Origin: Candidatus Dormiibacterota bacterium
Lineage (GTDB): Bacteria; Chloroflexota; Dormibacteria; Aeolococcales; Aeolococcaceae
NCBI GenBank assembly: GCA_003153125.1
Contig: PLWW01000018.1
Coordinates: 2,723-66,722, forward strand
Length of the DNA stretch: 64,000 bases
Direction of reading: 5' to 3'
The translations under genes were made by a program, and so were the position numbers. Below the pieces are notes generated by a model that worked only from the letters and a program-made list of their open reading frames with translations, was not told the DNA's origin and searched no databases. Below, piece by piece: positions 6,132-55,863 of the stretch; position 1 is the first letter of the stretch, and each line of letters starts with the position of its first letter.

Positions 6132-6142
6132 GGTGGCTCATT

Positions 6143-26075: not shown

Positions 26076-27263
26076 TCAGCCCTCGCGGGCCGCCGCGACC
26101 AGCACGCTGGCGACCTCAGGCCGGCTGAACTCGGGAGGAGGCAGTTCGCCGGCAAGCAGCATCTCGCGCACGCGCGTCCCGCTGAGCACCAGGTGGTCCT
26201 CGTCGGGGTGCGGGCAGGTCCTGGTGCTGGCCATGCCCTCGCAGCGATGGCACCAGAAGGTGTGCTCGAACGGCAGGATCTCGATGCCCAGAGCGGTGCG
26301 GTCGATGTTGTCGAAGATGCGCTGGGCGTCGTAGGTGCCGTAGTACTTGCCCACCCCGGCATGGTCGCGGCCGACGATAAAGTGGGTGCAGCCGTAGTTG
26401 CGGCGAACGATGGCGTGGAGCACGGCCTCGCGCGGCCCCGCGTAGCGCATCGCCGCCGGGAAGGTGCCGAGCACCACCCGGTTCTGCGGGTAGTAGCCCT
26501 CGAGGAGGACCTCATAGCAGCGCATGCGCGTGGCCGCCGAGATGTCGTCGCCCTTGGTGTCCCCCACCAATGGCTGAAGGAACAGCCCGTCGATGGACTC
26601 GAGCGCGACCTTGTGGAGGTACTCGTGGGCGCGGTGCACGGGGTTGCGGGTCTGGAACCCGACGATGGTGCGCCAGCCCAACTCCGCGAAACGCCCGCGA
26701 GTCTGGGCGGGCGTGAGGTCGTAGGTGGGAAACGCCGAGGTGGGGATCCGCAGCGCGTGGATCTCGCCGCCGATGGCGTGCGCGCCCTGTGCAAGACGTG
26801 CGGCCACGCCGGGGTGAGCTGAATCGGCGGTGCCGAAGCATGCCTCCACCTCGGCGGCGAGGTCGACGGTGAACACCTCCGACACCACCAGCAACGCCAG
26901 CGGGTCGCCGTCGGTGCCGACCAAGACGACGGTGTCCCCGGCGCGTCTCGCGCGCGCTGTGTCCTCATCTACGGCAAGCACCACGGGCATCGACCAGATC
27001 GAGCCATCGCTGAGCCGCATCGTCCCGCACACGGAATCATGGTCTGCGGACCCGACGAAGCCGGTGAGCGGGCTGAACGCACCCACCGCGATGCAGTGGA
27101 CGTCCGCCTGCTGGCGTGAGTCAAGGGTGATGCGCGGAGCACCGTCAAGCGAGGCAAGACGCCGTGCACCCTCCTCAGGCGACAACAGACGATCGACGAG
27201 CTTGACTGTTGACGTCCGCGCCGCGGCCGGCTCCGACGTCGCGGCGGATGGCTGCGCTGTCAC
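26076..27263 (-). CDS. sat: Sulfate adenylyltransferase (ATP sulfurylase, homo-oligomeric Sat type)
   Basis: Hallmark motifs GFQTRNPVHRAHE, GRDHAGVG and HTFWCHRCEGM, with an N-terminal PUA-like domain. Confidence 0.9.
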   Translation of the reverse strand: MTAQPSAATSEPAAARTSTVKLVDRLLSPEEGARRLASLDGAPRITLDSRQQADVHCIAVGAFSPLTGFVGSADHDSVCGTMRLSDGSIWSMPVVLAVDEDTARARRAGDTVVLVGTDGDPLALLVVSEVFTVDLAAEVEACFGTADSAHPGVAARLAQGAHAIGGEIHALRIPTSAFPTYDLTPAQTRGRFAELGWRTIVGFQTRNPVHRAHEYLHKVALESIDGLFLQPLVGDTKGDDISAATRMRCYEVLLEGYYPQNRVVLGTFPAAMRYAGPREAVLHAIVRRNYGCTHFIVGRDHAGVGKYYGTYDAQRIFDNIDRTALGIEILPFEHTFWCHRCEGMASTRTCPHPDEDHLVLSGTRVREMLLAGELPPPEFSRPEVASVLVAAAREG

Positions 27264-27472
27264 AGTACAGTCACCGCAGAAGATCGCGGCTGCTTGGCTT
27301 GCACACTACACCTCGTGATGAGTCCAACAATGGTGTCCGCAACCGACCGCGTTCGATCGCGCGGACGAGAGGTTGGACAATCCAAGCATCCATTATGTCA
27401 TCCGGCTTTCTTTGTTGGCACTGCGGCTGACGCGTCGTATCGCGCGGCGATCCTTATGCACAACAGTGAATG

Positions 27473-27494
27473 CGGCGACGGCCGGCCGTCGCCG
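27473..27494. promoter_or_regulatory. Perfect 22-bp palindrome in the sat-cysC divergent intergenic region (candidate operator or hairpin)
   Basis: CGGCGACGGCCGGCCGTCGCCG equals its own reverse complement. It lies 72 bp upstream of the cysC ATG and about 210 bp upstream of the sat start, in a locally lower-GC intergenic region. Confidence 0.45.
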
Positions 27495-27565
27495 AGATCA
27501 ATCGATGTAGCATCCACCGCGTCAGGGTGGACCAACGCGTGGCCGCCGTTGATAGGTGGCGCGTC

Positions 27566-28156
27566 ATGAATCAGCAGGGGAGAATCGCGGTGAGCGAAGT
27601 TCGTGGGGTGACCATCTGGTTCACCGGGATGAGCGGCGCGGGCAAGTCGACCATTTCTGAGGGAGTGCTCGGCGAGCTGAGAGCCCGGAGCACGCGCGTG
27701 GAGTTGCTCGACGGCGACCTGGTCCGGCAGAACCTCAGCAAGGGTCTCGGTTTCTCCAAGGAGGACCGCGACATCAACATCCGGCGCATCGGTTTTGTCG
27801 CCGACCTGCTGACCCGCAATGGCGTCACCGTCCTGGTGGCCGCCATCTCGCCGTACCGCGAGGCGCGCGACGAGGTTCGCGCCCAGATCGGCGACTTCCT
27901 CGAGATCCATGTCGCCGCCACGCTCGATACGCTTGTGGACCGTGACGTCAAGGGCCTCTACCGCAAGGCGCTCGCCGGCGAGCTCGCCAACTTCACCGGC
28001 GTCTCCGATCCCTACGAGGCCCCCGCCGACCCTGAGCTGGTGATCCACACCGACCACGAGGACGTGCAACTGTCGATCAAGCGTGTCCTCGACCTTCTCG
28101 ACGACTTCATCGCCGAGCGCGACGGCGACGGCCTGCGCCGGGAGAGCGCCGGCTGA
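27566..28156 (+). CDS. cysC: Adenylyl-sulfate (APS) kinase
   Basis: P-loop GMSGAGKST, the LDGD motif and ISPYREARD, which is the classic APS kinase signature. Divergent from sat. Confidence 0.9.
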   Translation: MNQQGRIAVSEVRGVTIWFTGMSGAGKSTISEGVLGELRARSTRVELLDGDLVRQNLSKGLGFSKEDRDINIRRIGFVADLLTRNGVTVLVAAISPYREARDEVRAQIGDFLEIHVAATLDTLVDRDVKGLYRKALAGELANFTGVSDPYEAPADPELVIHTDHEDVQLSIKRVLDLLDDFIAERDGDGLRRESAG

Positions 28157-28166
28157 GCGCCCTGGG

Positions 28167-29720
28167 TCAGTAGGAACCGCGGGCGGCGATCAGCGCGGGG
28201 ATCGTCTTGGCGAGGATGTAGAGGTCCATGACCACGGACCAGTTCTCCACGTAGAACAGGTCGTACCTCATGTAGTCCTCGAACACCAGTTCGTGCCTGC
28301 CGTTCACCTGCCACAGCCCGGTGAGGCCGGGCTTGACGCGCAGCCGCTGCAAGAAGCGCTCGTCGTAGTTCAGCGTCTCCTGGGGCAGCGCAGGCCGGGG
28401 CCCGACGAGGCTCATGTCGCCGCTGAGGACATTGAATAGCTGCGGGAGCTCGTCGATCGCGAACCGTCGCAGCTGCCGGCCAATCCGGGTCACGCGCGGA
28501 TCGGCCCGCATCTTGAAGAGGAGCCCGTCGGCCTCGTTCTGGTCGTGGAGCTGGTGGCGGAGATCCTCGGCGTTGACCACCATGGTGCGGAATTTGCACA
28601 TCATGAAGGTGCGGCCTTCGGCGCCCACCCGCTCCTGGCGGAAGAGCACGGGGCCCCTGCTGGTGAGGCGGACCAGTGCGCCGATGACCAGCATCGGCAC
28701 GGCGGCGACCACCAGCATCGCGGAGGCGATGGTCACGTCGAGGACCCGCTTGAGGAACCGCGCCCGCGACGAGAAGCGCTGGCGGCGCAGCGAGAAGAGC
28801 GCCATCCCGTCGAGCGGCTCGACGACGGCGCGCGACGCCGCGAGGTTGGTGAGGCCCGACGACACCCGCACGGAGATGTCGGTGCCGGCCAGGGCGGTGT
28901 CGATCTGCTGGAGCATGCCGCCGCCGACGGCGCTGCCGGCGATGATCACGATCCGCGCGTCGAGACGCTCCGCGACCTCCCCGATCGTGTCGACCGTGCC
29001 CAGAACGGCGAGTCCGTCGACCGTGGTCACGCCCGCATTGGTGACCTCGATGAAGCCACGGACGTCGTATCCCAGCCAGCGTCGCCGCGCAAGTGTCCGC
29101 GCCATCGCTCGGGCCTCGTCATTGCAGCCCACGATGATGGTGGGCTGGCTGGTGATGAAGCGGGCGTTGAGAGCGTGGTTGATGCGCCGCACCAGCATCC
29201 GGCCGCCGATCGTGGTCGCCAGTGATACGGCCAGCAGAGAGGCGATGAAGCTGCGCGAGATGTTGAGCTTGGCGCCGAACGCGACCAGCACGACCACGAG
29301 CACAGAGAAGATGACTGCGTGGAAGAGCTGGCGCATCTCCGCGGTGACGTGGGTGGAGCGGCGGAAGTCGTAGAGGCCGTAGACGCCGAAGATGACCGGC
29401 CACGCCGCAACCGTCAGGAAGAGCGTCGAGTCGATCGGGTCGAGCAGGTCCGTGCCGAGGTTCAGGTGGCTGTGGATCCCCTTGGCGGCGAGGTATGCCA
29501 CCAGGACCGCGAGCACGTCGACGACCACCGTGAGCACCAGGAGCCCGAACATCCAGCGATGGCGATGCGCATGGCGTTCCGCGCCCGCCGGGGCGGCCGC
29601 GATTCCACCGCCAAGGGCGACCGGGTGACCGACCAGCTCGGCTTGCGAGATGTCGCCCCCTGCCCAGGTATCGGCTTGAACCTGTCCGGGTGTCCCTATC
29701 AGATCGACCACGGCTCCCAC
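28167..29720 (-). CDS. Polyprenyl-phosphate glycosyl-1-phosphate transferase (WbaP/CpsE bacterial sugar transferase, priming enzyme)
   Basis: An N-terminal TM bundle plus the C-terminal catalytic domain ...RVKPGLTGLWQVNGRHELVFEDYMRYDLFYVENWSVVMDLYIL... Confidence 0.85.
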   Translation of the reverse strand: MGAVVDLIGTPGQVQADTWAGGDISQAELVGHPVALGGGIAAAPAGAERHAHRHRWMFGLLVLTVVVDVLAVLVAYLAAKGIHSHLNLGTDLLDPIDSTLFLTVAAWPVIFGVYGLYDFRRSTHVTAEMRQLFHAVIFSVLVVVLVAFGAKLNISRSFIASLLAVSLATTIGGRMLVRRINHALNARFITSQPTIIVGCNDEARAMARTLARRRWLGYDVRGFIEVTNAGVTTVDGLAVLGTVDTIGEVAERLDARIVIIAGSAVGGGMLQQIDTALAGTDISVRVSSGLTNLAASRAVVEPLDGMALFSLRRQRFSSRARFLKRVLDVTIASAMLVVAAVPMLVIGALVRLTSRGPVLFRQERVGAEGRTFMMCKFRTMVVNAEDLRHQLHDQNEADGLLFKMRADPRVTRIGRQLRRFAIDELPQLFNVLSGDMSLVGPRPALPQETLNYDERFLQRLRVKPGLTGLWQVNGRHELVFEDYMRYDLFYVENWSVVMDLYILAKTIPALIAARGSY

Positions 29721-30190
29721 TCCCCCCTTATCGGTGCTCTGTCACACCCGATCGCGGAAGTGTAACGATGGGTCGGGGACGGTGTCAATGACGCGTCTGG
29801 CGTGGTTGACTGCTTCTTCGCCGTCGCCGGCCGAGCGGTCGCCCGCCGCCGCATCGCGGCCCCCTCCTCTATAGACTGAGGCGACCAGGGACGACCAGGG
29901 ACATGGTGCCGGCGGACGGTACGGGGCTTCCCGGCGGGCTGACCTGATCTTGGGCAGACAGCTTCGACGACCTGGCGGAGACAGACGTCAGCGTACCCGG
30001 CTCCGTATGGCCCGCCCGCGCGCTAGCATCGCATGACCCGATTGATACGTTCGCCGGGATTGGCTTGTTGACAAGGTGGCTCACTTCAGGTCAAACTCTC
30101 GCAACGGCTCCGTCACATCGGGGCGCCGCGGGGGGGAAACCACGCGGGGGAAGGTATTCGGACGCGTCAAAGGGGGTCGCAGACAGGGCT

Positions 30191-31630: not shown

Positions 31631-31694
31631 ACACCAGGCGGCTACAGACACAGAACAGACAACGGATTTGCCGTTGCAATCAGGGGGGGAAGGG

Positions 31695-32484
31695 GATGAA
31701 CATGAACATGGGCACATGGCTCAGGAAGTCAGGTGGAGTGGCCGCGCTTGGAGGCGCCGGGCTGTTCGCATTTTCGCTCGCGGCGTCGCCAGCACTGGCG
31801 GCGGGCAACCCGAACTTCGACGGCGTGCTCGCCGCATCGAGCCCGACGGGGTTTCCAACAAGCCCGGCTTCGCTGGACGTGTCGTCCGGTCCGGTGAGCC
31901 TGCACTTCGACACGCTGGTCACCAACCTGACCACGGAACACCAGAACGTGGCGCTGAACTTCTCGGTGGACCACATCGTCACGCTCAACGGCGTCAACGT
32001 CGCTGACGGCCAGCCGGGCAAGCCGGGAATCACCTTCAACGGGCCTGCGGGCACCGTCCAGCAGGAGATGGCGGGGCGCCAGTCGTTCACGCTGAGCCTC
32101 AACGCCTCGGAGAAGAACCAGAAGCTGGATCTCACCCGCACCATGTCGGCCTGCGGTTACTACCAGATCGATGTGTGGGCGCCTGAAACCGGCCCGAACG
32201 CTCCTCGCCATCGGGAGACCCTCGCGTCTGGCTTCATTCGCGTTCTTGGCTGCAGCAGCACGCAGCCAACTCCGTCGCCCACGCCCACGAGCAGCGTCCA
32301 GGGCATCACCAGCCCACCCAGCCCCGACGGCGCTGGCGGTGGCGGCGTCCAGGCCGTGACCAGCCCGTCGACTGGCGCTGACATCCTTGGACCCGGAGCG
32401 GGCGGCCTCGCCCTGGTGACCGTCGGACTCGGGCTGGTCGTTGCCGGCGCGCGTCGCAAGAACCTCAAGCGCGAGGCTCCCTGA
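31695..32484 (+). CDS. Cell-surface hypothetical protein with a C-terminal TM anchor and basic tail
   Basis: Shine-Dalgarno GGGGGAAGGGG then ATG. Signal peptide AFSLAASPALAAG. A PT-rich stretch. The C-terminus is ...GLALVTVGLGLVVAGARRKNLKREAP, sorting-signal-like but without a canonical LPXTG. Confidence 0.55.
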
Positions 32485-32490
32485 CCGAAC

Positions 32491-33585
32491 ATGGAAATCA
32501 AGGACTATCTCCGAGCGATTCGACGCTGGTTGTGGATGCCCATCGTTCTGCCCCTCGTCGCCGGGGCGGGAACGGGTGTGCTCCTCCTCAAGCAGCCGCT
32601 GCAGTACCAGGCAGACGCGACCGTCGTCGTCCCCGCCGTGAGCGCCCGTGGGTTCTCGACGAGCGCGGCCGCGCAGTACGTGGCCACCTTCAAGGACGTG
32701 CTGGTCTCCGCGCCACTGGTCTCGGAGGTGTCGAAGGCAACCGGCGTGCCGACCAAGGACCTCGTCAGCGGTCTGACGGCGTCGACGGTCACGGTGTCGA
32801 GCAACATCATCCACGTCACCTACATCGGCTACCAGAAGAACAACGCCAGCAAGGTGGCCGAGCTGGCCACGCGCGACACACTCGACATCGTCGCGCAGCC
32901 CCAGTTGCAGCAGGCCCAGGCGGCGGTCGCCTCATCCTCGGCCCAGCTCAGGGCTGCCGACGACGCCATCAACGCCTTCACCAACAGCAGCGGGCAGGTG
33001 CAGCCTGACGTGGCCTTCCGCACCAAGCAGGCGGAGCTGCTGTCGCTGCAGCTGCAACTGCAGCAGACGCAGATCGCCGGTGACGTGCCGCGTGCAACGC
33101 TTCTGCAGTCGGTCATCACCCAGCGCATCGCGGAGCTGAGCCAGCTGGCCGCGCAGCTCAATCAGTACACCTCGCTGACACAGGCCAGGCAGCAGGCCGT
33201 GACGGTCGCCTCGCACGACCAGCAGCTGCTCGGCGACGCCCAGGCACTCCTGAGCGCCGACCATCTTCCCAACACCGTGACGGTGGCGGATATTGGCAAG
33301 CTCTCCCGCTCCGGCAACATCCTCAAGTTCAGTGCCATCGCGGCGGCCGTCGCCCTGATCATGGCGCTCGCGCTCATCCTTCTCATGGAGCTGATGCGGT
33401 ACCGGCGCCCCGCGGTCGCCGGAAGCGGCGGACAGCTGCTCACTCCTACGACGGCGGGAACGGTGGCGGCACCGCTGACCGCGACTGACGCAGTTCCCAG
33501 CAGCAACGGCGCGCACGTCCACGCGGACGATCCCGATGGCGAGCGCGACCTGGTCACCTCCGCGGGCCCGAAGGCGCGCAGGTAG
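32491..33585 (+). CDS. Wzz-like polysaccharide co-polymerase (chain-length determinant, PCP without a kinase domain)
   Basis: An N-terminal TM, a long Gln/Ala-rich coiled-coil periplasmic region and a second TM near the C-terminus (IAAAVALIMALALILLMEL). Confidence 0.7.
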   Translation: MEIKDYLRAIRRWLWMPIVLPLVAGAGTGVLLLKQPLQYQADATVVVPAVSARGFSTSAAAQYVATFKDVLVSAPLVSEVSKATGVPTKDLVSGLTASTVTVSSNIIHVTYIGYQKNNASKVAELATRDTLDIVAQPQLQQAQAAVASSSAQLRAADDAINAFTNSSGQVQPDVAFRTKQAELLSLQLQLQQTQIAGDVPRATLLQSVITQRIAELSQLAAQLNQYTSLTQARQQAVTVASHDQQLLGDAQALLSADHLPNTVTVADIGKLSRSGNILKFSAIAAAVALIMALALILLMELMRYRRPAVAGSGGQLLTPTTAGTVAAPLTATDAVPSSNGAHVHADDPDGERDLVTSAGPKARR

Positions 33586-33624
33586 TCTCGGATCTCCCCG
33601 CCCGCCCGTCGGGCGGGGAGGATT

Positions 33625-35566
33625 CGTGCCAGATATGCCGACAACAGTTCTCTACATTGCGGGTACTGGGCGGAGCGGGAGCACCGTCCTCGCCAACCTG
33701 CTGGGCGAGGTCGACGGCTTCTTCGCGGCTGGCGAGGTGCGCTTTCTGTGGCAGCGGGGTCTCGTCGAGAATCGCCTCTGCGGGTGCGGCGCCCCGGTGT
33801 CCGAGTGCGCCGTGTGGCGCGAGGTCTTCGAGGTGGCGGCGCGCCGCGGCGCACCGGTCGACGCGGCCGCGATGGTCCGCAGGCTTCGTGACACCGGTCG
33901 CATCCGGCACCTCCCAGCGATGGTCGCGGGACGGCTGATCCCGCGCCTGGACCCGACGTGCGCCGAGTCGGCCGCCCCCGAGCGCGCGGCCCTCGCAGCT
34001 CTGTACCCGGCGATCGCCGCGGTGACCTCAAGCCGGGTCGTCGTCGATTCGTCGAAGCTGCCCGCATATGCTGCGCTGCTGGCGGCGACGCCCGGGATCG
34101 ACCTGCGCGTCGTCCACCTGGTGCGCGACCCGCGCGGCGCCGCCCACTCCTGGTCGAGCCACAAGCCGCTGACCGACGGCGCCGCCCGCACCCACATGGA
34201 GGAGATCGGGCCGGCCAAGAGCTCGGCGCTCTGGGACGTCTGGAACCTCGCCGGTGAGGCCCTCCTCGATCGCGGACCGGGTCGATACCTGCGCCTGCGC
34301 TACGAGGACTTCATCGCCGAGCCCGAGGCGGCGCTGAGCCGGATCCTGGTCATGGCCGGAGCTGCGGACAGCGCCATGCCGACGGTGGCAGGCGGCACCG
34401 TGCACCTCCACCCCAACCACAGTGTCGCGGGCAACCCGGACCGCCTCCGCAGCGGCATCGTCAGGCTCCGGCCCGACACCCGCTGGCTCACCGAGATGCC
34501 CGCGCGCGACCGCCGCCTGGTGAGCGCCGCAACAGCACCCCTGTTGCTCCGTTACGGCTACCGGTTGCGCGTCGACCGCCCCTCGGGGCCGGCGACTGCG
34601 GCGGCGACCGTGGAGACCATCTTCGACCGCGTGCCCGCGGGAGGCAGCGCCACGCGCAGGATGGTCCTGAAGCTCCGCCGCCACCTTCGCTGGGGACGGA
34701 CCGAGGGTTTCGGCCGCCTCGTGGAGGAGGACGAACTCAACCCGGTGACGCGCCTGCGCGTCGCCGCGGAGAAGCTCGCCTGGCGCCGTTCCCATCCGCA
34801 GCCGGCTGGCTCAGCCACACCTGTGTACCTCGTGGGCCTGCAGCGCTCCGGCACCAACATGCTGGCGCGCGGGCTCGACACCGCCCCCGAGTTCGAGGTC
34901 CGCAACGAGAACGACCGCGAGGCCTTCAACCTCTTCCAACTCCGGTCCGACGCCGTGGTCGAGCGCATCGTGCTGGCCAGCCGCCAGCGCTACGTGCTCT
35001 TCAAGCCACTCTGCGACTCACACCGCGTCGACCACCTGCTGGACAACGTCAGCACCCCCTCGCCGGGACGGGCGATCTGGGCGTACCGTGACGTCGACGG
35101 CCGGGTGCGCTCAGCGGTCAGCAAGTTCGGGCGCAACAACCTGCTCGTGCTCGGCGACATCGCGGCCGGGCGCGGCGGCGGCATGTGGCAGGCCCAACGC
35201 CTGGCTGACGAGACACTCGCTGTGATCTCCAGCTTCGACTACTCGACGATGACCCCCGAGACCGCCGCGGCGTTGATGTGGTGGATGCGCAACGGGCTGT
35301 ACTTCGAGCTCGGCCTCGACAAGCGCGACGATGTGCTCCTGGCCTCGTACCAGGACCTGTTGCACGATCCGCCCGGGGCCATGGGCGCGATCTGTTCCTT
35401 CCTCGACCTCCCCTACCGGCCCGGCCTGGTCGCCCACCTGAGGGCGCCGTCGCCGGGCGGCCCGAGGCGGCTGGACATCGACCCCCGCGTGCGACTCCTG
35501 TGTGATCAGCTGGCGGTACGTCTCGACGACGTGCAGCGTCGCCATCGGCAGCAGTGGGCGGCGTGA
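33625..35566 (+). CDS. Tandem double-domain sulfotransferase (two PAPS-dependent sulfotransferase modules in one polypeptide)
   Basis: Two 5'-PSB P-loop-like motifs: YIAGTGRSGSTVLANLLG at the N-terminus and YLVGLQRSGTNMLARGLD at about residue 420. Each is followed by sulfotransferase-like segments (VVHLVRDPRGAAHSW; RYVLFKP...IWAYRDVDGRVRS). Confidence 0.75.
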
Positions 35567-37212
35567 GCGGAGACCCCGAGGACGACCCACCCGTTGGCAA
35601 CGCGAGGAACTCCGATCGTGCGGTGATCCGCCAGTCTGGCTTGACGGGAATCGCCGCCGGCGCCAGCGTCGCCTTCGGGCTGCTCCTCGACATCACCATC
35701 GCCGCGCGTTTCGGGGCGGGACGGGCCACCGACTCGTTCTTCGTGGCCGCACGCATCCCACTGGGGTTGGTCGCCGTCGTCCTGGTCGTCGCCAACCAGG
35801 CGCTCGTGCCGGCGTTCAGCACTTCGATCACCAGGAACGGCTATGCCGCCACCAGCAAGCTGGTGTCGCGCATCGTCGGCACCGTGCTCGTCTCCGGGGC
35901 GGCGCTCCTCCTGGTGGTCTCGCTTCTCGCCCATGAGCTGATCCGGGTCACCGCCCCCGGCATCTCGGAGTCCGAGGTGACCACCGCCGCGTCGATGGTG
36001 CCGATCGTCTTCGGCATCGTGCCGCTCATCGCCGTCTCCGAGGTGATGCGGGCATTCCTGAACGCGCGCTACGCGTTCATCGCACCGGCACTGATGAACG
36101 TCGTGCTCAGCGGCGTCGCCGCCTGCGTCATCCTGTTCAGCCCGCGTCACAACATCACGGTGGTGGCCTTCGGTTACCTCGCCGGTGCCGTCTGCCAGGT
36201 GTCGTTCACGGTGGCCATGGCAACGCGACGTGGCCTGCGCCTCCGGCCGGCGCTCGACCCGCGCAACCGCGAGCTGCGCGCCATCGGCAAGCTCTCACTG
36301 CGGCCCTTCGCGGCCGCGGGCCTCAACCCGGTGGCCCGCCTCGGCGAACAGCTGATGGTGTCCTTCCTGCCCCCCGGGTCCATCACCATCCTCAACTACG
36401 GCTACCGGCTCATCTCCGCCATCGGCGGCACCATCTTCTTTCGTTCGGTGGTGGTGGCCATCGTGCCGCGGCTCACTGAGGCGCACCTGCGCGGTGACAA
36501 CAGGGAGACGCTGCGCATCACCGGCCTGGGCATGCGCATCATGCTGGCGCTGAGCGTCCCGCTCACCGTGTTCATGGCGGTGCTCGCCAAACCGGCTGCC
36601 CTCGCGGTGTTCCAGCGCGGCAACTTCACACACGCGAGCGCGTCTCTCCTGGGCGTGGTCCTGGCCGTGTACTCGATCAGCTTGGTCGGCTCGGCGCTGC
36701 AGCGCGTCCTGCTCTCGCCGTTCTTCGCGAAGCTCGACACGCGCACGCCGCTGCGCAACACGATCTACGGGGTCGCCGCCAACCTCGTCCTGCTGCCCCT
36801 GCTCACGCTGCCCTTCGGGTGGGGCAACCCCAACGCCATCATCGGGATCGCGCTTGCGTACTCGCTCGCCCAGTTTGTCAACGTGGCCCACGCCGGCTAC
36901 CGATTGCGCAGCACCATCGGGTCGCCGGTGCGCGGCATCGGACGCCTGGCCCCGCGCCTGGTCGCGGCGTCGGCGATCAGCGGAGGGGCAATGGTCGCGG
37001 CGGTGATGCTCTTCCAGCTCGACGACGGGCTGTCGCGCGGCACGCTGTTGTTGCGCACGGCGCTGACAGGCCTCGGCGGAGCGCTCATCCTCGCAGCCGC
37101 GATGATGCTGCTCGCCGGCAAGGACCTGTCGAGCACCTGGCGGTCGCTGCGCCGCCAGCCAGCGACTCACGCGCTCCAGTCCGAGGCTGAAAGCTTGTCA
37201 GGCGCGCCGTGA
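35554..37212 (+). CDS. MurJ/MviN (MOP superfamily) flippase-like membrane protein
   Basis: 14 or more TM helices and a MurJ-like N-terminal region (DSFFVAARIP...). The GTG start overlaps the sulfotransferase stop by 13 nt. Confidence 0.8.
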   Translation: MGGVSGDPEDDPPVGNARNSDRAVIRQSGLTGIAAGASVAFGLLLDITIAARFGAGRATDSFFVAARIPLGLVAVVLVVANQALVPAFSTSITRNGYAATSKLVSRIVGTVLVSGAALLLVVSLLAHELIRVTAPGISESEVTTAASMVPIVFGIVPLIAVSEVMRAFLNARYAFIAPALMNVVLSGVAACVILFSPRHNITVVAFGYLAGAVCQVSFTVAMATRRGLRLRPALDPRNRELRAIGKLSLRPFAAAGLNPVARLGEQLMVSFLPPGSITILNYGYRLISAIGGTIFFRSVVVAIVPRLTEAHLRGDNRETLRITGLGMRIMLALSVPLTVFMAVLAKPAALAVFQRGNFTHASASLLGVVLAVYSISLVGSALQRVLLSPFFAKLDTRTPLRNTIYGVAANLVLLPLLTLPFGWGNPNAIIGIALAYSLAQFVNVAHAGYRLRSTIGSPVRGIGRLAPRLVAASAISGGAMVAAVMLFQLDDGLSRGTLLLRTALTGLGGALILAAAMMLLAGKDLSSTWRSLRRQPATHALQSEAESLSGAP

Positions 37213-37333: not shown

Positions 37334-38833
37334 ATGGCGACTGTCGTTCAGCCGGCTCGACAGGACGTGGGCTCGCCCATGTCGACGCCGCGAGGTCGCC
37401 TGATCATCGCCATGTGCGCCGTGGTGATCGTGGTGTTGTCCGTCGAAGCCACGGTGGTGGCCGCAACCGGCGGCTCGAAGCTCCTCATGATTGTGCCCAT
37501 CGCGCTTTTTGCGGGGCTCGGTCTCACGCTGCTCGGCGTGGTCAACTTCGAAGGCTTCGTCTATGCCACCATCGTTGTCCGCGCGAGCATGGACATCGTC
37601 AAGACGTCCCCCACCAGCAGCGGCACCGCCGGCGTCAACACCGCTGCGGCCTCGGGTCTCGACCCAGCGGGCGGACTGGCGGTGATATTCATCCTCATGG
37701 CCTTCTTCTGGTACCTGACGCGCAAGCGGGAGGGCCGGGTCGCCCCCCGCGCCTCGATCCATCGTATCTGCCTGATTCTCTTCGCCGGGGCGGGCTACCT
37801 GAGCATCATCGACTCGGCCAGCGTCTCGATCAGTCTGCTCGAGGCGATCCGCGTCACCGCGGTCGTGGTCATGCTCGCCGTTCTCGAAGTTCTACTCGTC
37901 GACCGCGAGAGCATCAAGCGACTTGTCACGGCCATCTACGTCTCAGCGGTGGTGCCGGTCGGGCTGACCATGTTCAACGTGGTCTTTCACCACACACAGT
38001 TCACCAGTGGTGGATTCGATCGCTACCAGGGCACCTTCTCGCAACCCAACCCCTTCGCCATCTACCTGACCATGCTGATTGTGATGGGAGCCGCGCTGTT
38101 CCCCCACCTGACGATCCGCAAGCGTGCGCTGATGGCGTTGCTGCTCATCGGGTGCGTCATCAGCCTGTACTTCACGTACACGCGCAGCGCGTGGATCGCG
38201 GCTGTCATCGGGCTGTTCGCCGTTGCGTACTTCGGCCGCCGCCGCCTGATGCTCGGCATCATGCTGGGAAGCATGCTGCTCTCACTGGTCGCAGTTCCCA
38301 CAATTGCGGCACGCTTCGCCGACCTCGGCCAGGCGACGAACGCCTCTGGCACCGCCTCCAACTCGCTGACTTGGCGCTTCAACTACTGGGGTGAGGTGCT
38401 GCCGCTCGCCAATAAGGATCCCATCACCGGCATCGGCCTGAAGATGAGCTCCTTCGAGACCAGCCAGCAGAAGGAGCCGCACAACGACTTCCTCCGCGCG
38501 TATGTCGAGACCGGGGTGGTGGGCACAGTGGCCTACTTCCTGCTGCTCTTCAGTATGGGAGCGGTGGCCCGGCAGTCATTACGCTTCACCAAGAAGCGTC
38601 ACGGCAGCTACGAGCATTCCATCGCGGTCGGGTTTACCGGGTGCGTGATCGCGTTCGTGCTCATCAGTCTCGTGTCCAACGTGATCAGCGAAGTGATCGT
38701 TCTCTGGTACTACGTCGCGTTCGCAGCGGCGGCGTACGCGGTGACCCAGTACAGGGAGAACGCCATCCTGCGCGGTCTTCCTCCGCCTCCTGACGACGGC
38801 GAGGTTCCCGTCCTCGCGCGTCTCAGCGCCTGA
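37334..38833 (+). CDS. O-antigen ligase/polymerase family membrane protein (Wzy/WaaL-like)
   Basis: A polytopic membrane protein with a large loop carrying ...YTRSAWIAAVIGL... and HNDFLRAYVETG, which are Wzy_C-like motifs. Confidence 0.75.
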   Translation: MATVVQPARQDVGSPMSTPRGRLIIAMCAVVIVVLSVEATVVAATGGSKLLMIVPIALFAGLGLTLLGVVNFEGFVYATIVVRASMDIVKTSPTSSGTAGVNTAAASGLDPAGGLAVIFILMAFFWYLTRKREGRVAPRASIHRICLILFAGAGYLSIIDSASVSISLLEAIRVTAVVVMLAVLEVLLVDRESIKRLVTAIYVSAVVPVGLTMFNVVFHHTQFTSGGFDRYQGTFSQPNPFAIYLTMLIVMGAALFPHLTIRKRALMALLLIGCVISLYFTYTRSAWIAAVIGLFAVAYFGRRRLMLGIMLGSMLLSLVAVPTIAARFADLGQATNASGTASNSLTWRFNYWGEVLPLANKDPITGIGLKMSSFETSQQKEPHNDFLRAYVETGVVGTVAYFLLLFSMGAVARQSLRFTKKRHGSYEHSIAVGFTGCVIAFVLISLVSNVISEVIVLWYYVAFAAAAYAVTQYRENAILRGLPPPPDDGEVPVLARLSA

Positions 38834-38850
38834 CGCGGCTCCGGACCGCC

Positions 38851-40095
38851 GTGAGGATCCTGCACGTCAACAAGTTCCTCTACCGGCGCGGAGGTGCCGA
38901 GGCATACATGGAGGACCTCGCCGACCTCCAGGTCGCTGAAGGTCACACGGTCGCGTTCTTCGGGATGCAGCACCCCAGCAACACCCACCTCGAGTACGCG
39001 CGCCACTTCCCGAGCCACATCGAGATGGAGCCCCCGCCAACCAGCCTGGAGGGCCGCATCCGCGGTGCCGCCCGCATGGTGTACTCGACATCGGCGAGCA
39101 AGGGGATGGACGCGGTCATGGCCGCGTTCAAGCCCGACGTCGTTCACCTCCACAACATCTATCACCAGCTCTCTCCCTCGGTGCTGCGCCCTGTGGCCCG
39201 TCGCCACGTGCCCGCCGTGATGACGCTGCATGACTACAAGCTCGCCTGTCCCACCTACCAGTTCCTCGACCACGGCAGGATCTGCGAGGCGTGTCTCGGC
39301 GGCCGCTTCCACAACGCTGTGCTGCGTCGCTGTAAGGACGGGTCGCTGGCGGCGAGCGCGGCAGCGGCCGGGGAGCTGTTCATCCACACGGCGACGCGCG
39401 CGTACGCGCCGGTGCGGATCTTCGTGTGCCCCAGCCGCTTCATGGCCGACAAGATGGCCGAGGCGAAGGTGTTCCCAGAGCGGCTGCGGCACGTGCCCCA
39501 CTTCATCGACAGCGCAGCCGTGGAGGTGAAGACAACGCCCGGCGGTGCCGTGCTGGTCGCGGGACGCCTGTCTGCGGAGAAGGGGATCGACGTCGCCATC
39601 CGGGCGATCGGCCTCCTCGACGGCGCCACCCTGGACATCGCCGGCACCGGCCCGGAAGAGGCCGGCCTGCGCGCTCTGGCCGAGAGCGCCGCGCCCGGGC
39701 GGGTGCGCTTCCACGGCCTGCTTCCCAAGGAGGGTGTGCATCGCCTCATGCTGAGCGCGGCGGTGGTCGCGGTGCCGTCCCGCTGGTACGAGAACCAGCC
39801 GATGGTCGTGCTCGAGGCCATGGCCCGCGGTCTTCCCGTGGTGGGGAGCGCACTTGGCGGCCTGCCGGAGCTCATCGAGCCGGGCGCAACCGGTGCGCTG
39901 GTGCCTGCCAACGACCCCGCAGCGCTGTCCGCCGCCCTCGCCCCGTTCGTCGCCGACCCTGCGCACGGAATGTCGATGCGCGACCGCGCCCGCGCCCACA
40001 TCGTCAGTGAGTTCTCACCAGAACGTCATCTCGAGCGCATCGACTCCGCCTACCGCGAGGCCGGCGCGCCGATGATGGCGGGCGCGGCGGCGTGA
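38851..40095 (+). CDS. Glycosyltransferase family 4 (GT-B, retaining)
   Basis: MRILHVNKF...GGAE... at the N-terminus and the EX7E motif (ENQPMVVLEAMARGLPVV). Confidence 0.85.
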   Translation: MRILHVNKFLYRRGGAEAYMEDLADLQVAEGHTVAFFGMQHPSNTHLEYARHFPSHIEMEPPPTSLEGRIRGAARMVYSTSASKGMDAVMAAFKPDVVHLHNIYHQLSPSVLRPVARRHVPAVMTLHDYKLACPTYQFLDHGRICEACLGGRFHNAVLRRCKDGSLAASAAAAGELFIHTATRAYAPVRIFVCPSRFMADKMAEAKVFPERLRHVPHFIDSAAVEVKTTPGGAVLVAGRLSAEKGIDVAIRAIGLLDGATLDIAGTGPEEAGLRALAESAAPGRVRFHGLLPKEGVHRLMLSAAVVAVPSRWYENQPMVVLEAMARGLPVVGSALGGLPELIEPGATGALVPANDPAALSAALAPFVADPAHGMSMRDRARAHIVSEFSPERHLERIDSAYREAGAPMMAGAAA

Positions 40096-41234
40096 AGTCC
40101 GCGCGCGTCGCCTTCATCGGTCAGCGCGGCGTCCCCGCAACCATCGGGGGCATCGAGCACCACGTCGAGGAGATCGGCTCGCGGCTGGTGGCGCGGGGCC
40201 ACGAGGTGACCGTGTACACGCGCGGCAACTACACGACCGAGCGCGTCACCGCGCATCGCGGCATGAGGGTGCGCTATGTACCGACCGCGCCCACCAAGCA
40301 CCTCGAGGCGCTCGTGCACAGCGGCCTCTCGACGGCGGCGGCGATGCTGCCGGGCCGCAACGCCGCACAGATCCTCCACTACCACGCCATCGGCCCCTCG
40401 GTGTTCACGCCGCTTCCCCGGCTGCTGTCGCGCCGCCGGGTCGTGCTCACGGTCCACGGCCTCGACTACGACCGCGAGAAATGGGGGCCGGGTGCTCGCA
40501 CCGCACTCCGCACCGCCGGCTGGATCAGCTCGCACGTACCCCACGCAACCATCACGGTTTCTGCCAACCTCGCCGAATACTATCGGGCCCGGTACGGGCG
40601 CGAGGCGGTCCACATTCGCAACGGTGTGACCGCCCCGGTGGTACGCGAGCCGCGGCTGATCACCGAGCGTTGGGGCCTGCGCGGGCGCGACTACGTGCTC
40701 TTCGTGGGACGCCTGGTGCCCGAGAAGGCGCCCGACCTGCTCGTGCGCAGCTTCCGCGACGTGCCCACAGACGCCCGCCTGGTCATCGCCGGGGGCTCCA
40801 GCTTTACCGATGAATACGTCGGCGTGCTCGAGAAGGCCGCGGCAGCCGACCCACGGATCATCCTCGCCGGCTCGGTATACGGCGAGCCCCTGCAGGAGCT
40901 GTACAGCAACGCTGCGGCGTTCGTGCTTCCCTCCAAGCTGGAGGGCCTGCCGCTCACCCTCCTCGAGGCTGCGTCATACCGCGTGCCGCTGATCGCCAGC
41001 GACATCCCACCGCACCGCGAGGTGATCGGCGCCGACGGACCGGGCGGGCGGCTGTTCCACAGTGGTGACGCCCTCGCTCTGCGCGACACCCTGGCGTCAG
41101 TGCTCGGGTCGCTCGACACGGAGCGCGTGGGCGCACGCGCCGTGGGTGACCGCGTGGTCCGTGAATACGACTGGGACCAGGCCACCGACGCAACCGAAGA
41201 GGTGTACGAGCGGTTGCTGGCCGCCGCGCGCTGA
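40092..41234 (+). CDS. Glycosyltransferase family 4 (GT-B)
   Basis: GVPATIGGIEHHVEE..., a C-terminal EX7E-like segment (EGLPLTLLEAASYRVPLIAS). The ATGA overlap with the upstream GT suggests coupling. Confidence 0.85.
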   Translation: MKSARVAFIGQRGVPATIGGIEHHVEEIGSRLVARGHEVTVYTRGNYTTERVTAHRGMRVRYVPTAPTKHLEALVHSGLSTAAAMLPGRNAAQILHYHAIGPSVFTPLPRLLSRRRVVLTVHGLDYDREKWGPGARTALRTAGWISSHVPHATITVSANLAEYYRARYGREAVHIRNGVTAPVVREPRLITERWGLRGRDYVLFVGRLVPEKAPDLLVRSFRDVPTDARLVIAGGSSFTDEYVGVLEKAAAADPRIILAGSVYGEPLQELYSNAAAFVLPSKLEGLPLTLLEAASYRVPLIASDIPPHREVIGADGPGGRLFHSGDALALRDTLASVLGSLDTERVGARAVGDRVVREYDWDQATDATEEVYERLLAAAR

Positions 41235-41333
41235 GTGACGCGCAGCGCGCGGACGGGTCCATCGAGACGCGGCAGGATCCGGCAAACCCCGTGCTACCGT
41301 AGTTTTGTGCTACCCGCAAGAGCTCGACGCGCG

Positions 41334-42425
41334 ATGGATCGGATGGGCGCGGCGGGACGGCTTCTCGTGGTGGCCGCGCTTGTCACGTTGGTGACGGCGT
41401 GCGGCGACTCGCATGCCCTGCAGCCCACTGTCGCCCCGGCGACGCCCACCCCCTTCCCCACCATCAGCGGCAGCCCCACGCCGGCGTCGGACCTCAAGCC
41501 GGCGATCCACGGCCTCGTCGACCGCGACGGCCCGCCCTCGGCGGCCTACCAGGGAGTGGTCAACAACTTCGTTGTCAATGTGCACTGGAGCGACATCCAG
41601 CCGCAGCCGGGTCCGCTCGTGGGGAACAACGCCATCGACCAGGCGATCACGGAGGCCCGCCAGATGAACACCGTCGCCGGACAGCCGCCGGTCGGCATCA
41701 AGATCCGTTTGTACACCGGCGTCTACGCTCCGTCGTGGGCGAAGGCGCTCGGCGGTGGACCGGTGGCGGTGGCGGCCGGCAGCCTGACCGGCACCGTCGG
41801 GCGGTTCTGGACCAATGCCTTCGGCTCCGCGTACGCCGACGTGTGGACGCGCCTCGCCCAGAAGTACGACAGCGTGCCCGAGATCCGCGAGATCACGGTG
41901 TCGCGCTGCATGACCTTCTACGCGGAGACGCTCATCCGCGACACGTCGGACCCGACCACCGGGCAGAACCTGATCAACGCCGGCTTCTCGCTCGACGCGG
42001 ACAGGACCTGCATCACGCAGGAGATCGACCTCGGCTCGGTGTGGCACAAGACGCGGATCGGGATGGCGTTCAACCCCTACGAGGACGTGGTCCCCGGCCT
42101 GCACCTGACCGACGAGGCGTTCACCGAGCAGATGATGCAGTACTGCAGGACCAAGCTCGGCCCGCAGTGCGTCCTCGAGAACAACTCGATCCGCTTCCCG
42201 CCGCAGGCCGGCATGTACGCGCTCATGTACGCGGCGATCACCCGGCTCGGGGCGCCGATCTCGTTCCAGACGGCCACGCTCTCGCGCATCGGCGACCTGA
42301 CCGAGACGCTGAACTGGGCTGTGACGGCCGGCGCGAGTGCCGTGGAACTGCCGGCTGGTTATACAGCGCTGCCGGTGTCCACCCTGGGCGGTCTCGCGGC
42401 GGCGCTCCCGGTGAGCGCGACCTGA
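41334..42425 (+). CDS. Hypothetical lipoprotein (possibly a TIM-barrel glycoside hydrolase-like protein associated with the polysaccharide locus)
   Basis: Lipobox LVTACGDS. The conserved-looking Trp/acidic pattern (WSDIQPQPG, RLYTGVYAPSW, ENNSIRFPP) is suggestive of a glycan-processing enzyme, but no firm family assignment. Confidence 0.5.
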   Translation: MDRMGAAGRLLVVAALVTLVTACGDSHALQPTVAPATPTPFPTISGSPTPASDLKPAIHGLVDRDGPPSAAYQGVVNNFVVNVHWSDIQPQPGPLVGNNAIDQAITEARQMNTVAGQPPVGIKIRLYTGVYAPSWAKALGGGPVAVAAGSLTGTVGRFWTNAFGSAYADVWTRLAQKYDSVPEIREITVSRCMTFYAETLIRDTSDPTTGQNLINAGFSLDADRTCITQEIDLGSVWHKTRIGMAFNPYEDVVPGLHLTDEAFTEQMMQYCRTKLGPQCVLENNSIRFPPQAGMYALMYAAITRLGAPISFQTATLSRIGDLTETLNWAVTAGASAVELPAGYTALPVSTLGGLAAALPVSAT

Positions 42426-44903: not shown

Positions 44904-45842
44904 TCAGCCCGTGGATGCTGGCGTGGAGAGTGTTGTGTACTGCAGCGAACGCAGGCGAGTCGCCAGACTGTCCTCCAGGAGCGCGACGCTGGCAGGGTCG
45001 AGGTCGCGGCGGAAACCGTCGACGCGTGATGCCTCGAACGGGTACTGCGCGAACGCTCGTTCGAATTCGTCCGTCCAGCGTAGTCCGCTGAAATCGAGGA
45101 TGTCGCCGATGTGCTTGCGCGGTTCGGCCACCACGTCCTCGTACCTCACACGCAGCCACTGCGACGACGGGACCTGCGTCCGTGCGGTGTCGTACGCATC
45201 GATGAGCAGCTTCCAGCCGAGCCCGGCGAGGGTCACGAACGAGTTGCCGGATGCCTCCCACTCCTCGGCGTACGCCGGCGGCAGCGGCCCGAGGTGCCAC
45301 GCGCCGGGTCCGCGGTAGCCCTGCCACCACCCCATCTGCAGCCACGAGTTGGCAACCGCCCTGCCGTCACGCACCACCTCGACGAACCGGGCGTCGGGGA
45401 AGGCCGCGTGGAGCAGACCGGTACGGGGCCAGCCCGTGAAGTGGTGGACGAATGCAGGCCGGTTCTGCGCCGCCATGCGGCGCTCGAAGAACCCCTGCAG
45501 GCGTCCACTGAGCCAGGGGGTGCAGTCGGCGGCGACCAGGTCGCGGAAGGGCGTGGAGATGATCGGTGACACCTGGCGGTCGAGGATGCTCCACGCCTCC
45601 GAGGGAGCGATGCGGAAGCGGCCGAACTCGATGAGCCGGCGGCGGTCGCGGAACGGACGCATGCGCGGATCGCGCGGGGCCGACAGACGGTGCAGGCCGT
45701 TGTTCCACCGGCCGGCCATGTTCAGGTAGGTCAGCTTGTCGTCGAAGTTGGACACGAAGCCGACGTCGCGGTGGCGGCTGACGACCTCGACGATGGGGGT
45801 TGAGCCGCAGCGACCCGTGCCGATGAAGAAGACGAGCATCAC
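44904..45842 (-). CDS. Sulfotransferase family protein (PAPS-dependent)
   Basis: 5'-PSB loop FFIGTGRCGSTPI with a sulfotransferase-fold pattern. It lies 22 bp downstream of paralog B and is co-oriented with it. Confidence 0.8.
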   Translation of the reverse strand: MMLVFFIGTGRCGSTPIVEVVSRHRDVGFVSNFDDKLTYLNMAGRWNNGLHRLSAPRDPRMRPFRDRRRLIEFGRFRIAPSEAWSILDRQVSPIISTPFRDLVAADCTPWLSGRLQGFFERRMAAQNRPAFVHHFTGWPRTGLLHAAFPDARFVEVVRDGRAVANSWLQMGWWQGYRGPGAWHLGPLPPAYAEEWEASGNSFVTLAGLGWKLLIDAYDTARTQVPSSQWLRVRYEDVVAEPRKHIGDILDFSGLRWTDEFERAFAQYPFEASRVDGFRRDLDPASVALLEDSLATRLRSLQYTTLSTPASTG

Positions 45843-45864
45843 ACCGCAGTGTGGGGCAGCGTCC

Positions 45865-47085
45865 TCACTTCGGGCCGCCGAACAGCGAATTCAGGTCGCC
45901 GTTGGCGCTGCTCGCGGCGCCGCCCAGCAGGCCGAGTCCGAACTCCTCCTCGATGGAGCGCAGGGTGCCGAAGTGGTTGCCGTGTGAGGTGACCACGCCC
46001 ACGCCGTGCGAGCTGCTGGAGATCACCACCATGGGAACCTGGCCGCCGCCAGGTGTGGACTGCGCGTCGTTCTCGTCCATGGTCACGATCACGGTGGCGT
46101 TGGCACCGGCGAACCACGAGGAGGCCAGCACCGGGGCCAGGTTGGCCTTCAGCCAGGCGTCGCCGGCGCTCACGGAGCCGGTGTGCATGTCGTTTGCCAG
46201 GTTTGGAGTGATCCAGACGAAGTCGGGAGCGCCCGGTCCGGTCAGCGCCGACACCAACCCGGCAGCGCCGGGGTACGGGACGTCGACGGTGGCGCAGTTC
46301 GACGCTGCGCGCACATCGTTGAAGTACAGGAACGGGTTGTGCTTCTCCGCGTAAAGGCCGGTGCTGCCGCTTGACGAGCAGGGCGCGGGCATGCTCTCCA
46401 TGTAGGCGCGCCACGGAATCCCGGCGGCGGTGAGCTGGCCGCCCAGGGAGGGCACGTTGAAGGGGCCGCAGCTGGGCGGTGTGCAGTCGCTGCTCACCCC
46501 CTGGGTGGCCCCACTGACGATGGACACGTAGTTGGGCGCGCTGGGATGACTGATGCCGAACCACGAGGTGTCGGTGGCGTAGGTCGCGGCCAGCGAGCAG
46601 TAGTAGGGATCTGCCGAACAGGTGCCCAAGCTGGCCTGGTATCCCTTGTTCTCTTCCACGATGACCATGACGTGCGGGGTGGTGGATGGCGCCGCTGCGC
46701 GGTGGACAGCGGCCGGTTGCGGCGTCGATGTCGACGCAGGGGTGGCCTTGTGGGTCGGGGCGATGACGGCAGCGGGTGCAGTGGGCGTTGACGACGGCCT
46801 CCCTTGTCGTGGCGGGGTCAGGGCCGGGTCATCACCCAGGGTGCTGTTGATGGCCACCGCCTGCGAGGAGGATGGAGTGCGGCTCGATGGAGAGCGCGAG
46901 CCCGGTGCATTCGAATTGACGACGAAGGCGATCACGATGACCAGCATCACGGTTGCCGCGCTCTTGAACACGTGGTCGCTGTGCCAAGCCCTGGCGATCC
47001 GCCGCTTGGCGAATCTCATCTGCGAGCGACGCGGACGGCGGCCGGATCGGTGCCGAGCAAGGCGGATGCGGAAGGCCATGAACAT
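45865..47085 (-). CDS. Membrane-anchored or secreted phosphoesterase-like domain protein (paralog family member B)
   Basis: A basic N-terminus plus TM (VMLVIVIAFVV), a PS/T-rich linker and the domain HVMVIVEENKGY...SAPNYVSIVSG...NLANDMHTG...VIVTMDEND... Confidence 0.7.
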   Translation of the reverse strand: MFMAFRIRLARHRSGRRPRRSQMRFAKRRIARAWHSDHVFKSAATVMLVIVIAFVVNSNAPGSRSPSSRTPSSSQAVAINSTLGDDPALTPPRQGRPSSTPTAPAAVIAPTHKATPASTSTPQPAAVHRAAAPSTTPHVMVIVEENKGYQASLGTCSADPYYCSLAATYATDTSWFGISHPSAPNYVSIVSGATQGVSSDCTPPSCGPFNVPSLGGQLTAAGIPWRAYMESMPAPCSSSGSTGLYAEKHNPFLYFNDVRAASNCATVDVPYPGAAGLVSALTGPGAPDFVWITPNLANDMHTGSVSAGDAWLKANLAPVLASSWFAGANATVIVTMDENDAQSTPGGGQVPMVVISSSSHGVGVVTSHGNHFGTLRSIEEEFGLGLLGGAASSANGDLNSLFGGPK

Positions 47086-55827: not shown

Positions 55828-55863
55828 ACCTGACCGGCAAACGGTGATGCGGCGGCAGGCAAC

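Follow-up and report, generated by a model that had tools for sequence, protein, structure and literature searches.

Animals, algae, and cyanobacteria are well-documented sources of sulfated polysaccharides, whereas reports from other bacteria are rare. Among bacteria they have been described as nearly exclusive to cyanobacteria (PMC8205485, PMC13390465). In the synechan locus xss from Synechocystis sp. PCC 6803, two separate sulfotransferases, XssA and XssE, are encoded together with a flippase (Wzx), a polymerase (Wzy), and a polysaccharide co-polymerase (PMC8205485). The locus wps-1 from Actinoplanes missouriensis also encodes two sulfotransferases, WpsB and WpsH, which belong to different families and are both required for sporangium formation, sulfation itself being unverified there (PMC13390465). 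The gene under study here comes from a stretch of 64,000 nucleotides, hereafter the window, of a Candidatus Dormiibacterota bacterium (assembly GCA_003153125.1, contig PLWW01000018.1, positions 2,723 to 66,722). It encodes two sulfotransferases of distinct families fused in a single polypeptide, and lies within a predicted exopolysaccharide (EPS) locus of the Wzx/Wzy type. Domain identity, fold, motif conservation, the distribution of fused and split forms, and conserved synteny were computed, and together they make it reasonably likely that the product is a soluble, cytoplasmic, bifunctional sulfotransferase dependent on 3'-phosphoadenosine 5'-phosphosulfate (PAPS), which would act on a lipid-linked repeat before flipping and give rise to a multiply sulfated EPS.

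Like xss, the locus holds several sulfotransferases from different subfamilies, and it is predicted to be Wzx/Wzy-dependent, as xss is; in xss, the cytoplasmic lipid-linked repeat is the presumed site of sulfation. Unlike xss, which is found in Cyanobacteria and uses separate genes, the window has two sulfotransferases fused and a third one alone, carries the genes for ATP sulfurylase (Sat) and adenosine 5'-phosphosulfate (APS) kinase (CysC) at the cluster, and comes from the Dormibacterota. The two-sulfotransferase Wzx/Wzy layout of wps-1 parallels the loci of Micromonospora and Phytohabitans, where relatives of the N-terminal and C-terminal domains of the fused protein (N-type and C-type, respectively) are encoded by split genes. 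The wps-1 cluster contains members of glycosyltransferase families GT2 and GT26, a glycoside hydrolase of family GH26, and a methyltransferase, whereas the window cluster contains two GT4 glycosyltransferases. Orthology with wps-1 was considered and is unsupported by this cluster content (GT2/GT26/GH26 versus GT4s).

The gene lies in a continuous open reading frame (ORF) running from stop to stop over 33479..35566 of the forward strand, with the first in-frame ATG at 33536 and a TGA at 35564-35566. The original prediction, made from the DNA letters alone, described a protein of 646 aa starting at 33625. The single continuous ORF stands, although 646 aa correspond to a start at GTG 33626, one position away, and a product of 643 aa from ATG 33635 (coding 33635..35563) is the likely one. 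A Shine-Dalgarno-like GGAGGA is located at 33617-33622, with GTG 33626 only 3 nt after it and ATG 33635 12 nt downstream, and the ATG is taken as the start because the closest homologues (64-97% identity) begin at its position (MPTTVLYIAG). The G+C content at third codon positions (GC3) is uniformly high across the ORF, at 0.88, which is typical of genuine genes in the window (G+C 66-73%). Neither a transmembrane segment nor a signal peptide was found in the fused protein (the maximum Kyte-Doolittle 19-mer value is 1.58, in a predicted buried strand), and the protein is therefore expected to be cytoplasmic.

Both halves of the protein are sulfotransferases by profile and by predicted fold, as originally proposed. 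When each half was aligned on its own to the sulfotransferase hidden Markov models of Pfam, both scored above the gathering cut-offs: the N half (residues 1-356) reached 52.6 bits for PF13469 (cut-off 27), and the C half (residues 357-643) 36.1 bits for PF13469 and 25.5 bits for PF00685 (cut-offs 27 and 22). The full-length AlphaFold2 (AF2) model, built on a 30-sequence alignment, has a mean per-residue confidence (pLDDT) of 84.6, with residues 1-315 mostly above 85, and a predicted template modelling score (pTM) of 0.53, which corresponds to two well-folded modules of undefined mutual orientation. Its best Foldseek matches in the PDB are the sulfotransferase domains of CurM and OLS, TPST1 and TPST2, the bacterial sulfotransferase 3rnl, NDST, and the 3-OSTs; the table of matches for the full model does not say which domain was aligned, and supports the fold of the N module without isolating it. 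The C half modelled alone (residues 338-643, with 31 stand-alone homologues) has a pLDDT of 90.7 and a pTM of 0.86, and its top 50 Foldseek matches in the PDB are all sulfotransferases. The idea that the C half could be a generic P-loop kinase was rejected, with no kinase among those 50 or among the top matches of the full model.

Structurally, both modules belong with the group of sulfotransferases that use a glutamate base, formed by TPST, CurM, and the heparan sulfate enzymes. The best structural and profile matches of both halves are TPST1/TPST2 and the CurM/OLS domains (PDB 3ap1, 5wrj, 4gbm, 4gox), with which they have in common the fold, the 5'-phosphosulfate-binding (5'-PSB) loop, a Glu at position +21, and the R-x8-S pattern of the 3'-phosphate-binding (3'-PB) element. 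These enzymes differ from the window protein in sequence (12-18% identity), in having a single sulfotransferase domain, and in their acceptors, which are protein tyrosine or beta-hydroxyacyl groups on an acyl carrier protein (ACP). In addition, the TPSTs are Golgi membrane proteins and the CurM sulfotransferase is part of a polyketide synthase. The heparan sulfate enzymes NDST and 3-OST (PDB 1nst, 1t8t, 8ccy) are glycan sulfotransferases with the same fold and a Glu base. NDST is likewise a bifunctional fusion acting on a polysaccharide, but it combines a deacetylase with one sulfotransferase, is eukaryotic, and works in the Golgi lumen on a polymer and not on a lipid-linked unit. Stf0 from Mycobacterium and NodH from rhizobia are, like the putative function of the window protein, bacterial PAPS-dependent carbohydrate sulfotransferases, but they are single-domain proteins acting on trehalose and Nod factor, respectively. 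The difference in organisation from Stf0 and NodH, already pointed out in the original prediction, extends to the family models: at E<=1 neither half matches the Stf0-type or Sulfotransfer_2 families of Pfam, the only matches being PF13469 and PF00685, and none of the NCBIfam nodulation/Stf models is matched beyond NoeE, at 12.9 bits versus a cut-off of 500. NCBIfam holds no family for the N half, the C half, or the third sulfotransferase of the window.

Each module carries its own set of PAPS-binding and catalytic residues. Two 5'-PSB motifs had been proposed and both are present, GTGRSGST near residue 10 as stated, and GLQRSGTN at residues 401-408, not near 420. Each is followed, also as proposed, by further sulfotransferase segments with the R-x8-S pattern of the 3'-PB element. 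Thus, the N module has the loop arginine R13, E34 (R13+21), S140-K141, and RDPRGAAHS (R164 to S172, residues 164-172), and the C module has the loop arginine R404, E425 (R404+21), K457, and RDVDGRVRS (R485 to S493, residues 485-493). The catalytic residues of TPST2 are R78, E99, K158, and S285, and those of TPST1 are R79, E100, K159, and S286 (PMC5562738), which places the catalytic Glu 21 residues past the loop Arg; the spacing in both modules is the same. A sequence search of the PDB with single halves was nearly empty, and a profile search was needed for placing the catalytic Glu. In the profile of the C-type family, the loop and E425 align to the TPST loop and Glu. In the alignment of the N half with the OLS sulfotransferase (4gox), E34 stands opposite the Glu of PPELHLL, which is reportedly, according to the structural work on these enzymes, the base in the CurM and OLS sulfotransferases.

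Domains were extracted from 78 related loci plus the window, and all 57 N-type and all 74 C-type domains, whether fused or free, have invariant residues at the 5'-PSB, Glu, Lys, and 3'-PB positions. Such invariance is what two active modules would be expected to show, and argues against one of the halves being a pseudo-enzyme. Besides these residues, a C-G-C-G-x6-C motif (C49, C51, and C58; window 33779-33808) together with W39, R41, and W61 is invariant in all 57 N-type domains, again irrespective of fusion. The three cysteines may form a metal site or a disulfide; no such cysteine site is known from characterised sulfotransferases.

The two halves do not derive from one another in any detectable way. 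When compared by BLASTP, their similarity is confined to the P-loop (E=0.07), and a tandem duplication was rejected since nothing else detectable is shared. Judged from sequence, they are two distinct sulfotransferase families that were fused and not duplicated. A word-indexed protein search with the fused protein returned 286 relatives, and the 120 listed are mostly full-length (~620-660 aa, 45-97% identity); among the matches listed, those with a named source come from metagenome-assembled genomes (MAGs) of Candidatus Dormibacteraeota/Dormibacteria. Scanning GTDB with one genome for each species yielded 429 relatives, including a Candidatus Dormiibacterota MAG (L001) with essentially the same locus as the window and 97% protein identity.

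The arrangement of both types was established by tblastn with each half separately. Fused N-C genes are found in ~45 Dormibacterota loci and in ~9 loci of Actinomycetota, including Acidimicrobiia (L027, L035), Mycobacteriales (L044), Jatrophihabitantaceae (L036), and also L030, L033, L037, L051, and L070. Split genes of both types are found within one locus in Micromonospora (L072, L073, L075, L076), Phytohabitans (L077), Nocardioidaceae (L068), and others, often on opposite strands and 1.5-8 kb apart. Many Gaiellales have a C-type gene but none of the N-type within 10 kb of it. With residues 338-643 as the query, 1141 relatives were returned, and most of the 120 listed are proteins of 290-350 aa that cover 92-100% of the query; because of this coverage by stand-alone homologues, the helical segment 339-386 is assigned to the C-type family and not to the linker. 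An exhaustive search of representatives at 50% identity gave 10,212 relatives at E<=1e-3, of which 2,762 reached E<=1e-30. The best 150 of the 10,212 are mostly single-domain, with the N-C fusion in ~8. Three more of these 150, metagenomic proteins of 655-665 aa (P0241, P0242, P0244), are tandem fusions of a different kind, N-type with N-type, in which both halves are ~39-42% identical to the N domain of the window. As far as these searches indicate, didomain sulfotransferases are a recurrent but minority architecture, not unique to the window gene.

Linker sequence and length vary between lineages, and no stop codon is found in the linker of the window gene. In crude neighbour-joining trees, fused and split forms interleave and the groupings are similar for the two domains. 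This pattern fits co-evolution with more than one event of fusion or fission, the trees being too weak for event counts. Taken as a genomic signal, the fusion is a Rosetta-stone link between two sulfotransferase families. Within the literature covered by the search, no paper dealt with fusions between sulfotransferases, or with sulfotransferases or EPS of Dormibacterota.

Two oddities were observed among the related loci. In five long-read MAGs (L023, L028, L029, L042, L053), the fused gene appears in 2-3 tblastn segments in differing frames; these breaks are probably sequencing frameshifts and not real pseudogenes. Similarly, four loci hold a Dormibacterota-type fused gene with 64-67% identity and the same synteny under other titles, Candidatus Saccharimonadales for L013 and L019 and uncultured Chloroflexia for L024 and L025, which probably reflects differences in binning or in taxonomy labelling.

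Features of the window considered in this work, with their coordinates, strand, and supporting evidence.
Feature	Coordinates	Strand	Evidence
ATP sulfurylase (Sat)	26076..27305	-	PF01747 E=2e-97 and PUA_2
APS kinase (CysC), PAPS-making	27470..28156	+	PF01583 E=2e-56
Priming polyprenyl-phosphate glycosylphosphotransferase	28167..29741	-	PF02397; TIGR03025 (EPS_sugtrans) 405.6 bits, cut-off 295.55
Two predicted secreted/anchored proteins with Pro/Thr-rich stretches, one with CarboxypepD_reg	30065-31630, 31582-32484	+	
Wzz-like polysaccharide co-polymerase, weak match	32491..33585	+	PF02706 E=3e-4, 21.5 bits, cut-off 25.5; position conserved in Dormibacterota
Fused two-domain sulfotransferase gene, 643 aa and stop	33635..35566	+	ORF; Pfam PF13469 and PF00685; >100 full-length homologues
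N-type sulfotransferase domain, residues 1-315	33635..34579	+	PF13469; alignment with OLS sulfotransferase 4gox; pLDDT mostly >85
First 5'-PSB loop, GTGRSGST, residues 10-17	33662..33685	+	Read from translation; invariant
Interdomain linker, residues 316-338, disordered and variable	34580..34648	+	pLDDT <50; gapped, unconserved alignment columns
C-type sulfotransferase domain, residues 339-643	34649..35563	+	PF13469 and PF00685; stand-alone homologues; AF2 model; Foldseek
Second 5'-PSB loop, GLQRSGTN, residues 401-408	34835..34858	+	Translation; invariant
MurJ-family (MOP) flippase	35554..37212	+	PF03023 E=1.5e-56; TIGR01695 (MurJ equivalog) 201.8, below cut-off 235.55
Wzy_C / O-antigen-ligase-family polymerase	37334..38833	+	PF04932 76.7 bits, above cut-off; conserved synteny
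GT4 glycosyltransferase	38851..40095	+	PF00534, PF13439
Second GT4 glycosyltransferase, start uncertain	40011..41234	+	PF00534, PF13439
Conserved cluster protein, 396 aa, unassigned family	41235..42425	+	
Third, stand-alone sulfotransferase of another family	44904..45890	-	PF13469 69.6 bits; remote similarity only to either half
PF04185 paralogues	42533-44638, 45865-47094, 55834-59949, 59984-62947, 62643-64000	-, -, +, -, +	

The neighbourhood of the fused gene resembles that of a polysaccharide locus, and Dormibacterota loci share a conserved gene order that runs from the priming transferase through to the second GT4. The third sulfotransferase has orthologues in the same loci of both phyla, and these, together with orthologues of the GT4s, Wzy, and Wzz, also occur in the Micromonospora-type loci. 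The flippase falls below the equivalog cut-off of MurJ, so it is probably not a lipid II flippase. An alternative start of the second GT4, GTG 40092, would overlap the stop of the preceding gene by 4 nt. The junction between the two GT4 genes (40092-40095) is then a GTGA start/stop overlap, as at the junction between sulfotransferase and flippase, and the GTG start of the next gene directly follows the stop of the second GT4 (41232-41237); thus, the genes over 37334-42425 are packed like a single operon. The last of them encodes a protein without any sequence match in Pfam, NCBIfam, or the PDB, which accompanies the cluster in Dormibacterota and in the Actinomycetota loci of fused type L033, L036, L037, L044, L051, and L070. 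A scan for promoters and terminators gave counts at the level of the shuffled background.

Several other genes of the region were observed. The pair of predicted secreted proteins lies between the priming transferase and Wzz and is syntenic in most Dormibacterota loci. Five paralogous large proteins hold a C-terminal PF04185 'Phosphoesterase family' domain, several of them with CarboxypepD_reg or TIG repeats, and two of their genes flank that of the third sulfotransferase. A second candidate flippase of the MOP family (Polysacc_synt, Wzx-like) is encoded at 4626-6137 on the reverse strand, ~28 kb upstream, beside an L,D-transpeptidase gene; therefore, this region of the genome may hold more than one glycan flippase.

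The junction between the fused gene and the flippase gene had been described as a 13-nt overlap bringing about translational coupling. The overlap is present in the window if the flippase starts at GTG 35554, while the in-frame GTG 35563 would give a 4-nt GTGA overlap. A start at the 13-nt position occurs only in the window and in L001, L002, and L032, which are its closest relatives. In nearly all loci with an adjoining flippase, the junction is either a 4-nt overlap (xTGA) or a start 0-12 nt downstream, and it is equally tight in L056 and L071, two loci with a free C-type gene. It is therefore the adjacency of sulfotransferase and flippase that is conserved, and not the specific 13-nt overlap. 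Translational coupling of the two genes is plausible from this arrangement.

Based on these observations, the following mechanism is proposed, in which the activity of each module, the nature of the acceptor, the order of sulfation and flipping, and the translational coupling are inferred. The fused enzyme would have arisen from N-type and C-type families, elsewhere encoded by separate genes of the same polysaccharide locus, joined via a flexible linker of ~23 residues. Each module would bind PAPS by its own 5'-PSB and 3'-PB elements, with the Glu at +21 from the loop Arg serving as catalytic base in both, as in TPST/CurM-type enzymes, and PAPS would come from the ATP sulfurylase and APS kinase encoded close by. 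The priming transferase and the two GT4s would build a repeat linked to undecaprenyl diphosphate on the cytoplasmic face of the membrane, and the fused enzyme and the third sulfotransferase would each sulfate different positions of this repeat. The MurJ-type flippase, whose gene directly follows that of the fused enzyme, would then flip the sulfated unit, Wzy would polymerise it, and Wzz would set the chain length, leading to a multiply sulfated EPS. The fusion would secure a 1:1 stoichiometry and bring two consecutive modifications close together. Since PAPS is confined to the cytoplasm and the enzyme is predicted to be soluble, sulfation would precede flipping, in line with the logic of Wzx/Wzy systems (PMC8205485).

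Some observations weigh against this proposal. Solved sulfotransferases resemble the two modules only remotely in sequence and structure (12-18% identity, TM ~0.4-0.6), and acceptor specificity is therefore unreadable from homology; moreover, the closest folds include protein-tyrosine and polyketide sulfotransferases and not glycan enzymes only. No characterised member of the N-type or C-type family was found in NCBIfam or in the literature searched, and most stand-alone C-type proteins are annotated as 'hypothetical protein', with no NCBIfam model. The C-type genes that occur alone in Gaiellales indicate that pairing of the two activities is not obligatory. Only some of the related loci have adjacent Sat and CysC genes, and the Wzz match is below the Pfam cut-off (PF02706). 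Finally, the geometry between the domains is not predicted by the model (pTM 0.53), and any substrate channelling between them would be speculation.

The link to a lipid-linked glycan is drawn from gene context, and the alternative that fares best concerns the acceptor. Both modules could be active on nucleotide sugars, a glycolipid, a small metabolite, or a cytoplasmic protein or peptide, with the neighbourhood reflecting nothing but co-regulation. The nearest solved folds, TPST (protein tyrosine) and CurM/OLS (acyl-ACP), together with acceptor specificities that alignments do not reveal, would agree with this, as would the sulfotransferases of mycobacteria and rhizobia, which act on glycolipids and lipo-oligosaccharides (PMC8205485). 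However, the genes for the priming transferase, flippase, polymerase, and GT4s are tightly syntenic with the sulfotransferase gene across two phyla, the start of the flippase abuts the stop of the sulfotransferase, and the genes of both families remain inside the same polysaccharide locus even where they are split, which makes another acceptor rather unlikely.

Sulfation by the fused enzyme could also involve one catalytic module only, the other one being a degenerate sensor of PAPS or its product PAP, a glycan-binding module, or a scaffold, so that a single sulfate would be added. Pseudo-enzyme domains are common in tandem-domain proteins, and the C half has the weaker profile scores (36 and 25.5 bits) and PDB sequence matches that cover the domain only in part. 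Against this, every class of catalytic residue (Arg/Ser/Thr of the PSB loop, Glu +21, Lys, and Arg/Ser of the 3'-PB element) is kept in 57/57 and 74/74 domains, and both families also occur as stand-alone proteins of ~300-310 aa, which speaks for each being an independent enzyme. A degenerate module is thus improbable. That the didomain ORF is an artefact, in which a frameshift from sequencing or assembly, or the loss of a stop codon, merged two adjacent genes, as the frameshifts in some long-read MAG loci and the separate families of many Actinomycetota might suggest, can practically be dismissed, given the uniformly high GC3, a linker of lineage-variable length without stop codon, and an uninterrupted fusion in >100 protein clusters and ~50 species-level genomes from independent studies, at 45-97% identity and with assemblies of Mb-scale contigs among them.

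With both modules active on the lipid-linked repeat as the preferred reading, a broader and more tentative proposal can be made, which at present is somewhat less likely to hold than to fail. According to it, Dormibacterota, together with many soil Actinomycetota in which the same genes are unfused, would produce a heavily sulfated, glycosaminoglycan-like EPS, with up to three sulfates per repeat added before flipping, two of them as ordered sulfations in one encounter with the fused enzyme, and with a dedicated MurJ-type flippase specialised for a polyanionic unit. If true, bacterial sulfated polysaccharides would occur well outside cyanobacteria and marine taxa, in a dominant uncultured phylum of soil, permafrost, and desert, and a function would be assigned to two large uncharacterised sulfotransferase families.

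The chemistry proposed, PAPS-dependent sulfation, is ordinary; what is new is the heterologous fusion of two sulfotransferase families within a conserved locus, probably for a sulfated EPS. The fusion says that two large uncharacterised families, with relatives in the thousands, act in the same pathway, which makes both of them easier to assign and testable in culturable Micromonospora, where the genes are split. Sulfotransferases like these are also of interest for making sulfated glycans. The locus would represent a complete and conserved genetic blueprint in an uncultured phylum, from PAPS synthesis through three sulfotransferase modules to a Wzx/Wzy-type machine. Dormibacterota are common in peat, permafrost, and Antarctic soils, and a polyanionic, water-holding matrix could matter for their tolerance to desiccation and cold.

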